Positions 34,833 to 36,790 of a stretch of DNA of 64,000 nt are shown here, piece after piece. Positions within the stretch are counted from its first letter, which is position 1. Each line of letters opens with the position of its first letter. The stretch comes from a phage. The DNA lies in the NCBI GenBank assembly GCA_025830695.1, contig GCA_025830695.1_4111.2. One strand, written 5' to 3'. Made by a program: the position numbers and the translations under genes. A model generated the notes under the pieces. That model saw only the letters and a list, made by a program, of their open reading frames with translations. It was not told the origin of the DNA and did not search any database.

Positions 34833-34946
34833 TTAAACACAAGTAGACAGGGGAAGCTCCTAGTGAACAACCTTTATGTACAGGCGAATTGTTAAAATTC
34901 AGCCTGGACAAATGCGATCACTAGGATTCTCCCCAGGCTAAACCCC

Positions 34947-35173
34947 GTAATCATAGGTAGTCATAAGTAATCATATATAAACATTTAAGTAATCATTTAT
35001 AATCACTGTAGTGATCAGTAGTGAGTACTAGAGTACAGGAATGTTCACGTTTAATCAAGAACGTAGCAGTACTGATATGTCACTAAGTAGGCAGAGGAAG
35101 TCTGCCGTACTTTGTAGTTTCCAAGCTCCTTTTCCATTTTGCAAATTACATCAAATGTAATCAAAAGTAATCA
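34947..35173. repeat. dispersed GTAATCA(T) direct repeats (at least 5)
   Basis: GTAATCA at 34947, ~34967, ~34989, ~35157, 35167 in ORF-free DNA. Confidence 0.5.
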
Positions 35174-35674
35174 CGCAATGATTAGTACTGAATTATTACT
35201 TTCACCTTAATTTCAATTACCCCTTTACCCTTCGGGGTAAAATTCCATTACCCCTTGAGGCTCCAGCAAAAAGTTGGTTAGTACTCCATCCTAAATCTCG
35301 ATCCTAAAAATTTTGGAGTACCTATGAAATAAAAGTTGGATCTTCGAAAGTTGAAATTTACGTTGGGACGTTTATGATTTGTGGGATATAATGATGTTTG
35401 TAGTCGGGTAGTTCTCAAGAATATCAGTACTGAATAATGAAAGAAAGCTATTGACATTATGATTCAGTACTGTATAATGTTCTACATAGGGTGATGAGTT
35501 GCTGCGAACAATTCATTTACTCTACCTCCTGTCGTGAGACAGTACAGAAAAGATAGTTCCTCCTGTGGTGGTACATCTTTTTGAACCTCATATGAAAATC
35601 GTAATAACAGTACTGATATTAACAGAATGGTGTCAGTACTGATTTTAATCTAAATCATTATGCCACCAGCTTGT

Positions 35675-35682
35675 GCTGGTGG
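35675..35682 (+). other. Chi-like octamer GCTGGTGG in hairpin CCACCAGC-TTGT-GCTGGTGG
   Basis: Exact octamer; complement forms other hairpin arm. Confidence 0.5.
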
Positions 35683-35859
35683 GTTCCCTCTAACAGTATT
35701 CAGTACTACATGATAGTCTTCATCCTCCTAGGGTAACATAGTGAGGGCTATGATGGCAGTACTGAATACTCCCTTTCAAAAGATAGATCTATGGTATAGT
35801 ACTGACGGATTTTGGGCGTAGTTACCCTGGATGGATTTTGGACGTAGATATGTCTAGCC

Positions 35860-35990
35860 CTCCAGAAGTCTGGAAGTAAAGATGGCTATCCATCTAGACG
35901 GCTAAACGGCTAGATTTCTGGATGGCTAGACGTTTGGACGGCTAAACGGCTAGATGGTTACACGTCTGGAAGTATAGACGGCTAAATCAA
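35860..35990. repeat. iteron-like direct repeats (GACGGCTAAACGGCTAGAT x2 plus partials)
   Basis: Exact copies at 35897-35915 and 35937-35955; partial at 35977. Confidence 0.6.
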
Positions 35991-36139
35991 AATTTTATTT
36001 TGTTTTTTCCAATAGTTCCCCTACCGCGTGGGGATAGTTTCCCCGCAGTATCTGGAGTTAGATTTTTCTGAATCTGGAATCATTATCTTATAAACTGGGG
36101 GCAATGTCAACGGTCTGGACGGATATTTTTAAAAATTTT

Positions 36140-36440
36140 TTCAGTACTGAATTTTGGGCGTAACTATGCACCCGGTGGGCTTGAGTCTTTCTCGACTTGA
36201 TGGAACTATTATACAGTACTGGAAAAATAAAGCAATACCCTGGAAGCAAAAAAGTTTTAATTAATTTGCTTGCTATCCTGGGCCGGACTATGGTACTATA
36301 TTTCAGTACTGAGAAAGTGCGTTTACCTGCTAGGGTGCGGGAGTGTATCCTTTTTTTATATCTTGAATTTTGGGCGTAATTCCGCACCCCCTGGGGTATC
36401 CGCTTTCTCGCGTCTATGTAGTAATTATACGCTTTTTCAG
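36140..36440. repeat. two ~90-bp repeat units (ATTTTGGGCGTA...GCACCCGGTGGG...CTTGATG...CAGTACTGG)
   Basis: Units at ~36146-36235 and ~36366-36440; read as minus-strand promoter-leader modules. Confidence 0.5.
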
Positions 36441-36731
36441 GATCAAGTCAATACCTAAAAACAAAATAATTGAAAATAATTTAACGCGTTTAAACGGCCC
36501 GTAAAGCCCTGGAATGATTGGAATGGTGCAAATGTATAGCTTAGGTGTATTAATGCGTTAGAATGCGTCTGAGGCCGTTTTACGGGGTATCGGGATGATT
36601 TGGTGGATTGATTCAGTACTGAATAATAGTACTCCTATATAGAAAGATAGTTCCCCTGGATGGTTGCAGTACTGAATGACAGTTCCCCTATATAGAAAGA
36701 AAACTATTTTAAAAGTACATGTAGAAAGTAC

Positions 36732-36790
36732 TTGCAAACTATGTTTAAAGGCGTATAATGTTTTACATCGAGAGCGGGAACTCTTCCCGC
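36732..36790 (+). promoter_or_regulatory. PeSL-like cassette (TTGCAA-16-TATAAT + stem-loop)
   Basis: TTGCAA 36732-37, TATAAT 36754-59, hairpin GCGGGAA-CTCT-TCCCGC. Confidence 0.65.

Follow-up and report, generated by a model that had tools for sequence, protein, structure and literature searches.

A non-coding stretch of an Asteriusvirus jumbo phage that probably forms the left end of its linear chromosome

Here we analyse a window of 64,000 nucleotides (nt) of phage DNA (NCBI GenBank assembly GCA_025830695.1, contig GCA_025830695.1_4111.2), which by its sequence is part of an Asteriusvirus (PBECO4/121Q-like) jumbo phage of E. coli of ~350 kb. A first-pass annotation placed at 34833-36757 what it took to be the only long stretch without credible open reading frames (ORFs), and saw in it either a replication origin or a cluster of small non-coding RNAs. 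The main fact missed at that stage is the position of the stretch at a chromosome end. The region is very probably the left end module of a linear jumbo-phage chromosome, comprising the boundary of its direct terminal repeat (DTR) and the repeat's non-coding leader, and the leader contains a conserved 43-nt box, near-consensus promoters with predicted small RNAs, a two-way Chi site and a strictly periodic 8-bp array.

Forty-two Asteriusvirus records (PBECO4, 121Q, phAPEC6, G17, Sharanji and others) match the region at 88-98% identity, and 35 of them cover at least 80% of it. In most of the relatives listed it is either unannotated or filled with small 'hypothetical protein' ORFs. The record of CMSTMSU (MH494197, flagged UNVERIFIED_ORG) differs from all relatives by many single-base indels across the region, which are probably sequencing errors, and was left out of the conservation arguments.

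The description of the stretch as free of ORFs holds up. There is no conserved ORF in 34833-36814, and the first real gene begins with the ATG at 36815, which extends the non-coding stretch to 36814. Within 34833-36757 the longest ORF has 99 amino acids (aa; 36088-36387, minus strand, GTG start) and the next ones have 59-62 aa. We rejected hidden protein genes, as the 99-aa ORF, a 60-aa ORF and both 59-aa ORFs are interrupted by frameshifts or stops in close relatives (PBECO4, EJP2, UE-S1 or 121Q). The 62-aa ORF (36270-36458, TTG start) is merely shortened near its end in UE-S1 and 121Q; it overlaps promoter P2 and the RNA unit B described below, where the sequence is near-invariant. Two still shorter candidates, a 20-aa micro-ORF in the RNA predicted from promoter P1 and a minus-strand 19-aa ORF with a good Shine-Dalgarno sequence, are both missing in EJP2. 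A covariance-model search against Rfam gave no match in the window at gathering thresholds and nothing credible in the region at E<=5, and a tRNA search found none.

The terminal-repeat boundary and the conserved leader

Relatives already have the position of the DTR boundary annotated. In the GenBank record of vB_Ec-M-J, 'Direct Terminal Repeats' are given as 1..21525 and the first coding sequence (CDS) is placed at 1760; bases 1-21525 of this record recur with 100% identity at 357049-378573, and its base 1 corresponds to position 35086 of the window. Six other records from different laboratories and countries (BF17, CRJP21, fEgEco12, ELP-22, E9.1 and G17) share this terminal base, bringing the number to seven. 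The shared record start reads AGTAGGCAGAGGAAGTCTGCC, with G17 deposited in reverse orientation and carrying the terminal base at its record end. By homology, the right boundary of the repeat falls at window position ~54590/54591. Repeats of comparable kind have been reported for Sharanji (20,668 bp, determined with PhageTerm; PMC11895373) and for CBB (22,456 bp, backed by doubled read depth and pulsed-field gel electrophoresis; PMC5259590). Virion DNA in this phage group thus carries a DTR of ~20 kb, and the window very probably represents it collapsed into a single copy. Unique DNA then ends with 34833-35085, ahead of the right-hand copy of the repeat, and 35086-36814 is a 1.73-kb non-coding leader of the repeat (Table 1). 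An imperfect inverted repeat in the unique DNA was considered as a functional structure and rejected; its arms are not kept in vB_Ec-M-J or UE-S1, and it is probably not functional.

Both DTR boundaries carry one motif in inverted orientation, which reads outward from the repeat as CT^TAG(C/T)GAC (the caret marks the cut). In the window, the right boundary is aacct^TAGCGAC and the left boundary, as reverse complement, ctact^TAGTGAC; at each of its two cut sites vB_Ec-M-J carries an additional T, a change that co-varies. PhageTerm-defined right ends read gcct^TAGCCAC in fENko-Kae01 and ggct^TAGCAC in Muenster, and the left boundary of fENko-Kae01, forecast beforehand as ^TAGC, reads agata^TAGCGGA. 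Such an inverted, shared motif is what equivalent opposite-strand cuts flanking a single concatemeric repeat copy would need. A GAAGTC hexamer lies at nt 12-17 inside the end in the window, Serratia BF and XbC2 and is seen near both boundaries; it is too short to weigh.

The direct repeats of GTAATCA that had been noticed at the outset are indeed clustered here. Of the 18 exact copies in all 64 kb, five fall in a segment of 227 bp (34947-35173), accompanied by degenerate copies at 10-11-bp spacing. The clustering is local only, and GTAATCA was rejected as a genome-wide motif (18 found versus 15 expected). The copy number of these repeats differs among strains, and they are candidate recognition repeats for the terminase small subunit. 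In the scheme we propose, terminase would recognise the repeats flanking the cut, namely the GTAATCA arrays and the 43-nt box, and cleave at the TAG motif at each boundary of a single repeat copy in the concatemer, after which the repeat would be duplicated as in T7/T5-type schemes. With the inverted CT^TAGYGAC motif as a concrete cut site, the way in which T4-related terminases process very long terminal repeats, so far poorly understood, could be put to the test. In EJP2, the sequence around and just inside the expected terminus (window 34833-35260) is unrelated, and from 36130 onward it is near-identical. The part involved in end recognition seems to have been replaced there in mosaic fashion, possibly reflecting a different terminase specificity.

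The design of the leader is common to five Rak2-like genera, the window's own and those of fENko-Kae01, Muenster, XbC2 and Serratia BF. In the latter four the first CDS lies 1.3-1.8 kb from the start of the DTR or of the record, and the DTR measures 19,736 bp in fENko-Kae01 and 20,030 bp in Muenster. The order of the shared elements is the same among genera, conserved blocks are collinear between the window and Serratia BF, and blocks of 25-60 nt are kept across genera whose surrounding sequence no longer aligns. The 43-nt terminus-proximal box is found 70-240 bp from the end in four genera. Beyond the two GAATTTTGG(G/A)CGTA boxes that stand just before the 8-bp array, further copies lie at 36150-36163 and 36366-36379, and the same box precedes the array in Serratia BF; the window, fENko-Kae01 and BF share GAATTTTGGGYGTA boxes, of which XbC2 has a variant. 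The UUCG-loop hairpin of the first-pass annotation is present as well, at 35227-35238. We found no published description of this leader anatomy, that is, of the combination of inverted cut motif, 43-nt box, two-hairpin RNAs, two-way Chi and met-box array. The annotation of the Asteriusvirus 'gap' would change from an origin by default to a chromosome end with a conserved cis-acting leader.

Chi sites provide another signal associated with the ends. The window contains 12 against 0.66 expected, 11 of them inside the DTR, and among 168 octamers of the same composition only Chi exceeds two copies. Nine of the DTR sites are on the plus strand and two on the minus strand, both in the window and in vB_Ec-M-J, whose neighbouring 25 kb holds none. 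A Chi-containing hairpin had been reported before and is confirmed at 35663-35682 (fold -16.4 kcal/mol, z = -3.8); it is a palindrome containing Chi in both directions. Chi acts as the exact sequence 5'-GCTGGTGG-3' when RecBCD meets it from the 3' side (PMC12315714), and by this rule the minus-strand site (35663-35670) is oriented to be active for RecBCD entry at the left end and the plus-strand site (35675-35682) for entry at the right end. In fENko-Kae01 this palindrome is found again, at 484-503 bp. Its loop (35671-35674) is TTGT in the window, 121Q and UE-S1 and ACAA in vB_Ec-M-J and PBECO4; judging from these sequences, the whole palindrome is inverted between strains. Several other DTR Chi sites (for example 45554, 47935 and 53224) sit in intergenic hairpins just upstream of promoters.

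We propose that the two-way Chi and nine more rightward-active DTR Chi sites would switch RecBCD from degradation to RecA loading, which at either end would protect the ends and promote recombination between the repeat copies. Terminal clusters of correctly oriented Chi are documented in P1 and in Rec-less lambdoid phages such as LLS (PMC12315714). As in those phages, Chi here is far above expectation, lies in or near the terminal redundancy and is mostly oriented for activity from one end; the window phage differs in being a virulent jumbo myovirus with fixed ends and in having one palindromic Chi active both ways. The Chi-rich DTR is a new example of a known strategy, and would extend to a virulent jumbo phage the class, only recently recognised, whose members recruit RecBCD rather than inhibit it.

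Table 1. Positions of the elements of the end module and associated features in the window
Feature	Position	Strand	Remarks
Non-coding unique DNA outside the DTR	34833-35085		Adjoins the right-hand DTR copy in virion DNA
Imperfect inverted repeat	34844-34940		In unique DNA outside the DTR
GTAATCA-type direct repeats (GTAATCA, GTAGTCA, TAATCAC, GTGATCA)	34947-35023	+	10-11-bp spacing; 60-140 bp outside the cut
Left DTR boundary and cut site	35074-35102		GATATGTCACTA^AGTAGGCAGAGGAAGTC; cut between 35085 and 35086
DTR, ~19.5 kb	35086-54591		Once in the window; ~50 small early genes, each with its own sigma-70 promoter
Two GTAATCA copies and inverted TGATTA	35157-35184	+	70-95 bp inside the end; three copies in vB_Ec-M-J
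UUCG-loop hairpin, ACCC-TTCG-GGGT	35227-35238	+	Missing in EJP2
43-nt terminus-proximal box	35280-35322		AGTACTCCATCCTAAATCTCGATCCTAAAAATTTTGGAGTACC; 8-bp inverted repeat around two ATCCTAAA direct repeats
Promoter P1, TTGACA-16-TATAAT	35451-35478	+	Perfect consensus; first rightward promoter; 366 bp from the end
Predicted P1 RNA, ~100 nt	35486-35584	+	No ORF
Two-way Chi palindrome	35663-35682		CCACCAGC-TTGT-GCTGGTGG; 577 bp from the left end
Two GAATTTTGG(G/A)CGTA boxes	35808-35847	+	Just before the 8-bp array
8-bp tandem array	35848-35983		Strict 8-bp period; between the convergent P1 and P3 units
Promoter P3, TTGACA-17-GATAAT	36082-36110	-	Kept, EJP2 included
Unit A, promoter TTGCTT-16-TATAAT (36235-36208) and predicted two-hairpin RNA	36135-36235	-	AGUC-GAGAAA-GACU; GCCC-ACC-GGGU
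Unit D, promoter TTGCTA-18-TACTAT and predicted ~54-nt RNA	36270-36358	+	Convergent with unit B
Unit B, promoter P2 TTGACT-16-TATAAT (36451-36424) and predicted two-hairpin RNA	36358-36451	-	CGC-GAGAAA-GCG; ACCC-CAGG-GGGU
GCGTTAGAATGCG-TCTGAGG-CCGTTTTACGGGG motif	36555-36590	+	Significance weak
Two 44-nt direct repeats, 84% identical	36604-36700	+	Each with CAGTACTG
Promoter P4, TTGCAA-16-TATAAT, and hairpin-bearing 5' leader of the first DTR gene (ATG 36815)	36732-36814	+	
Unit C, fourth copy, promoter and two predicted hairpins	~39905-40000	-	Among early DTR genes

Promoters and predicted small RNAs

The first-pass annotation also described promoters on both strands without ORFs downstream. 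The number of sigma-70-like sites in the region is not above that in shuffles (8 found versus 8.8 expected), but three sites match the consensus at 11-12 of 12 positions (plus strand, 35451-35478, 12/12; minus strand, 36451-36424 and 36110-36082), all conserved in relatives and followed by no ORF. P1 is kept in EJP2 and has counterparts at 331 bp in fENko-Kae01 and 271 bp in Muenster. In its predicted RNA, a hairpin at the 5' end is accompanied by a second one, CUGUC-GUGA-GACAG, by two CCUCCU motifs and by a stem that resembles a terminator and has a run of U; the RNA folds into three hairpins at -30.2 kcal/mol (z = -2.1), with the terminator being weak, and in EJP2 the 5' stem is formed by different sequence. 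The predicted P3 transcript (~36075 to ~35985) would form a 5' hairpin and a GGGG/CCCC hairpin before entering the array (fold z = -2.9).

Units A, B, C and D have a common plan of promoter, the start ACAUAGA, hairpin 1 and hairpin 2. Hairpin 1 has a 3-5-bp stem and a GAGAAA-type loop, and presumably resembles the nut boxB of lambda/P22-type phages; hairpin 2 has the form CCC-N3-4-GGG. Among paralogues and genera the stem of hairpin 1 is CGC/GCG, CGA/UCG, CGG/CCG, AGUC/GACU, GAC/GUC, AGCA/UGCU, ACAAA/UUUGU or CCA/UGG. What had been described as two ~90-bp units are ~110-bp repeats at 36141-36250 and 36357-36466, identical at 74 of 113 aligned positions. Unit D ends in an intrinsic terminator (stem 36332-36351, T run 36352-36358), and XbC2 has a homologous convergent pair. 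Both promoters and covariation fit units A and B; a canonical terminator is found only in unit D and a weak one in the P1 RNA.

The search for conserved structure and covariation among relatives that the first-pass annotation proposed lends support to the predicted RNA units. We built a covariance model, R1, from five type-B sequences, with XbC2 outside the seed. The model finds one copy per leader in five genera, at 61-70 bits, on the minus strand and 1.02-1.34 kb from the end, and scores 61 bits on XbC2. In the R1 alignment (eight sequences, fitted to the model), all 53 scorable cells pair and three of seven pairs show compensatory double changes; the covariation score was reached by none of 500 shuffles, and slid controls give none. 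Strict pattern scans of IMG/VR returned five array stretches and six unit B stretches, two of the six from one metagenomic contig, and added little new diversity. Small non-coding RNAs in the region are thus supported by sequence, and consensus sigma-70 promoters would fire both ways to give short, ORF-less RNAs from P1, P3 and units A, B and D. The two-hairpin units would constitute a new, structurally supported small-RNA family spanning five jumbo-phage genera.

Promoters are also a feature of the DNA that follows. Between 36732 and 54000, a separate near-consensus sigma-70 promoter precedes nearly every small early gene, and ACAT and a stable hairpin at the 5' end come after it (for example GGGGAGAAAUGGUUCUCCCU).

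The 8-bp array and the methionine repressor

The exact iteron-like repeats reported in the first pass are present as two copies of a 19-mer, GACGGCTAAACGGCTAGAT, at 35897 and 35937, but their interpretation as iterons gives way to a fit with the binding matrix of the host methionine repressor MetJ. We used a symmetrised met-box matrix and thresholds from published work, in which an operator has at least two adjacent boxes, each with at least one quarter of the consensus score and together reaching at least the consensus score of 12.58 (PMC3228920). In 35880-35983, 13 consecutive boxes pass (3.8-10.7 bits each, 97 bits in total), and two further boxes lie in register upstream. Elsewhere in the window the longest run is two boxes, the maximum in 30 shuffles is three, and a score as high as the mean of the array is attained by just ~0.09% of 8-mers. 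Applied to E. coli K-12 as a positive control, the scanner recovers the metJ/metB and metF operators (four boxes each, 31 and 25 bits).

The array resembles E. coli MetJ operators in its 8-bp period, in the variants tolerated and in the CTAG junction between boxes (PMC3228920), and its per-box mean of 7.5 bits compares with 6.2-7.8 in metF and metJ/metB. Boxes of E. coli operators (AGAAGTTT, AGATGTCC, GGACGTCT and AAACGGAT) look like phage boxes, and tandem MetJ boxes, (AGACGTCT)n, are (CTAGACGT)n in a shifted reading. A3, G5, C7 and T8 are nearly fixed and position 4 is free, as natural met boxes tolerate; the phage consensus, AGACGGCT, differs systematically from AGACGTCT at position 6, where G is frequent. 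The phage arrays also differ from the bacterial operators in having 13-15 boxes (up to 28) rather than 2-5, and in lying away from methionine genes; the array covers no promoter of a methionine or S-adenosylmethionine (SAM) gene and is operator-like only, not a member of the met regulon, its binding being predicted from sequence. The number of repeats in the array varies among strains. A BLAST search with the array against 5,426 E. coli genomes gave no match, operators being too short for BLAST.

Similar runs of boxes occur in other phages, unrelated ones among them. There are 15 in the T5-like Vibrio phage Pontus and 28 in Aeromonas phage AhSzq-1, where the run lies in a non-coding region beside DNA-transfer (A1/A2-type) genes; shorter runs are found in Drulisvirus KPV811, Serratia BF, XbC2 and EJP2. 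Arrays are present in T5-like phages of Vibrio, Aeromonas and Providencia and in podoviruses. The Aeromonas array retrieved 96 phage records by BLAST, 95 of them on Enterobacterales, Vibrionales or Aeromonadales, and MetJ itself is limited to Enterobacterales, Vibrionales, Aeromonadales, Pasteurellales and Alteromonadales. It is improbable that one 8-mer is read in three phage families whose terminases are unrelated, so a host factor is the simpler explanation.

We lean slightly towards the view that the array binds MetJ, and a role as a MetJ decoy has a little less than an even chance. Tentatively, the array may be a MetJ super-operator of 13-28 boxes, found near DTR boundaries of unrelated fixed-end phages whose hosts have MetJ, and acting as a decoy or a SAM-sensing nucleoprotein block at the chromosome end. 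Its carriers, which may each have placed it separately, would be Rak2-like jumbo phages, T5-like phages of Vibrio, Aeromonas and Providencia, and some podoviruses. In this model, 13-15 met boxes would bind host MetJ-SAM, most likely as a decoy by which accumulating phage DNA titrates MetJ and derepresses methionine and SAM synthesis; alternatively, bound protein could be a roadblock that separates the P1 and P3 units, which are transcribed towards each other. Should the met-box reading be correct, it would be a new way of reprogramming host metabolism, through operator decoys on phage DNA rather than through proteins, and the same arrays in T5-like and T7-like phages suggest that the trick is widespread. 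The leader as a whole would engage host machinery with signals for RNA polymerase, RecBCD and probably MetJ. The array and Chi, together with Fur-box-like palindromes in sister genera and DnaA boxes in T5, could then make the leader a general 'host-factor landing pad' at the ends of phage chromosomes.

Alternative readings and comparison with other chromosome ends

The left end of T7 has a 160-bp terminal repeat, SRL arrays, a leftward A0 promoter, rightward A1-A3 promoters and a first gene at ~0.9 kb. The window shares with it a fixed end, a ~1-2-kb non-coding leader with short-repeat arrays followed by strong host-polymerase promoters, and early genes pointing away from the end. It differs in that its repeat of ~20 kb contains the whole early gene set and its terminase is T4-related; T7 has no set of several leftward promoters, small RNA units, Chi or met-box-like arrays. 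We know of no two-step injection in Rak2-like phages. For T5, a left terminal repeat and untranslated repeat regions, including an 'injection stop signal' region, have been described (bioRxiv 10.1101/866236; AY587007). Both phages have a long DTR (10 kb in T5) with early or pre-early genes on sigma-70 promoters and an untranslated, repeat-dense region (1.2 kb in T5) at a DTR boundary, which in T5 is the inner, right boundary of the left repeat and in the window the outer end. T5 itself, in which the array is missing, has paired DnaA boxes and DRD repeats as its hallmarks; in T5-like phages, arrays lie in non-coding repeat regions, beside A1/A2-type genes (AhSzq-1) or close to record starts (Vibrio phages). 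Of the features that mark T5 repeat region 3, neither the paired DnaA boxes in IRD'-spacer-IRC' nor the GTGCAAATCCGAC DRD repeats are present in the window region. We rejected homology to the T5 injection-stop region; only a 13-mer and the position at a DTR boundary are shared.

Several points weigh against the reading of the region as an end module with small RNAs and MetJ sites. The termini come from records of other isolates and from papers rather than from reads of this phage, and an earlier record may have guided some depositors in orienting theirs. EJP2 is unrelated for the first ~180 bp inside the end, and the putative recognition repeats are consequently not universal in the genus. The small RNAs are predicted from sequence, the covariation sample is small, and none of units A, B and D stands out by its fold z-score (-0.4 to -1.3). 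At position 6, where T is the met-box consensus, about half of the phage boxes carry G; the matrix scan found no array in fENko-Kae01, Muenster or T5; and XbC2, which has an array, is listed with a Xanthomonas host, from an order without MetJ.

Could the region be primarily a regulatory small-RNA gene cluster that acts in trans, with its place at the chromosome end incidental? The region does contain at least five units of promoter and structured RNA without an ORF, unit B is ~85-90% identical between phages of E. coli and XbC2 across genera with compensatory changes, and a unit can invert together with its promoter (fENko-Kae01, +946). The distant relative PA5oct, moreover, has a long DTR full of early genes and expresses two abundant, ORF-less transcripts inside it (PMC7318152), a likeness to the RNAs predicted here from sequence. 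Those non-coding RNAs are, however, 236-451 nt long and lie 8-22 kb into the DTR rather than in the terminal leader, and no sequence similarity to the window's units was established. The units also occupy about one third of the region and leave the cut site, the 43-nt box, Chi and the array unexplained, none has an Rfam match, they are predicted from sequence rather than from expression, and the fixed distances of elements from the terminus in five genera argue that position matters. We regard this reading as a real possibility about which we are doubtful. That the stretch is decayed DNA, made up of functionless remnants of early promoters and genes, we find hardly credible. Differences among strains in copy number and indels, and the spurious small ORFs that some depositors annotate here, are what decay would produce, but it would not preserve short blocks amid unalignable surroundings, their order and distance from the end, or compensatory base changes.

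Other alternatives concern the array. We think it unlikely that the array is a packaging or injection signal for phage proteins, the role proposed for the SRL/SRR repeats of T7 and for the injection-stop region of T5, or that it serves some other protein with 8-bp periodicity. Arrays near DTR boundaries or record ends in all three phage families and the departure from the met-box consensus at position 6 would suit such a role; the need for unrelated terminases to read one 8-mer, the box variation that follows natural met-box tolerance, the similar look of natural E. coli operators and the match between phage hosts and the range of MetJ speak for the host repressor instead. Still more improbable is a replication origin, similar to oriF, oriG or oriE of T4 or the primary origin of T7, in which the array would supply initiator iterons and P3 an R-loop or primer RNA over the adjacent A+T tract. 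The cumulative GC skew has its minimum at 34-35 kb, P3 would transcribe leftward through the ~20-nt A+T tract AAAATTTTATTTTGTTTTTT (35988-36007) into the array, and Rak2-like phages have T4-type replication genes (PMC5259590). Yet the skew shift coincides with the switch from minus-strand genes and a Tyr-rich ORF array to early genes, and within the region an A+T content of at least 85% over 40 nt is reached solely at 34963-35007, outside the DTR, and nowhere in the DTR part. There is no DnaA box (TTWTNCACA) in 34833-36815, against eight elsewhere in the window; the array is missing from fENko-Kae01 and Muenster, which have the leader all the same; and the array, which fits a host-repressor matrix, recurs in T5-like and T7-like phages with unrelated replication systems. 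Nothing specific to an origin was found, and of the two possibilities originally offered, the small RNAs are supported by promoters, conserved structure and covariation, while the origin is not upheld.

The end module, our preferred reading, has neighbours and motifs of separate interest. On its left, at 30568-34832, ~15 tandem paralogous ORFs of ~60 aa on the plus strand are Tyr-rich, start with MxKE(F/Y)Y and end with LLI(Y/F)R(Y/H); the GC skew of this array is negative although it is coding on the plus strand. Farther left, 18266-30525 holds ten consecutive paralogous minus-strand genes of ~360-430 aa, for which vB_Ec-M-J has the labels 'regulator of chromosome condensation' (RCC1-like) and 'virion structural protein'. 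Within the DTR, GCGTTAGAATGCG and the following ...CGTTTTA... context occur at three sites (36555-36567, 41607-41619 and 45608-45620), a recurrence of 3 versus 0.58 expected that has weak statistical support; the 13-mer is also found at the start of untranslated repeat region 3 of T5 (T5 9266-9278).

The window's leader has no Fur box within 5 mismatches. Fur-box-like palindromes (3-4 mismatches to GATAATGATAATCATTATC) lie at 787, 1079 and 1306 in Muenster, 775 in fENko-Kae01 and 1034 in Serratia BF, as well as in T5 repeat region 3 (T5 9574 and 9615). From these sequence matches, it seems that phages may load end-proximal leaders with differing host-regulator sites.

Finally, the palindrome AGTACT is ~12-fold over-represented (275 in 64 kb versus ~22 expected), and its frequent form CAGTACTG occurs 59 times versus 0.78 expected. 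The density per kb is highest in the leader (34833-36814), at 9.1, compared with 6.5 in the DTR and ~3 in structural genes; in the Serratia BF leader it is ~6. The palindrome may be the site of a phage DNA-binding or modifying protein. It appears twice in every early promoter (AAAGTACTTGCAA...CAGTACTGTATAAT), and its presence in all three reading frames implies that selection acts on the DNA.

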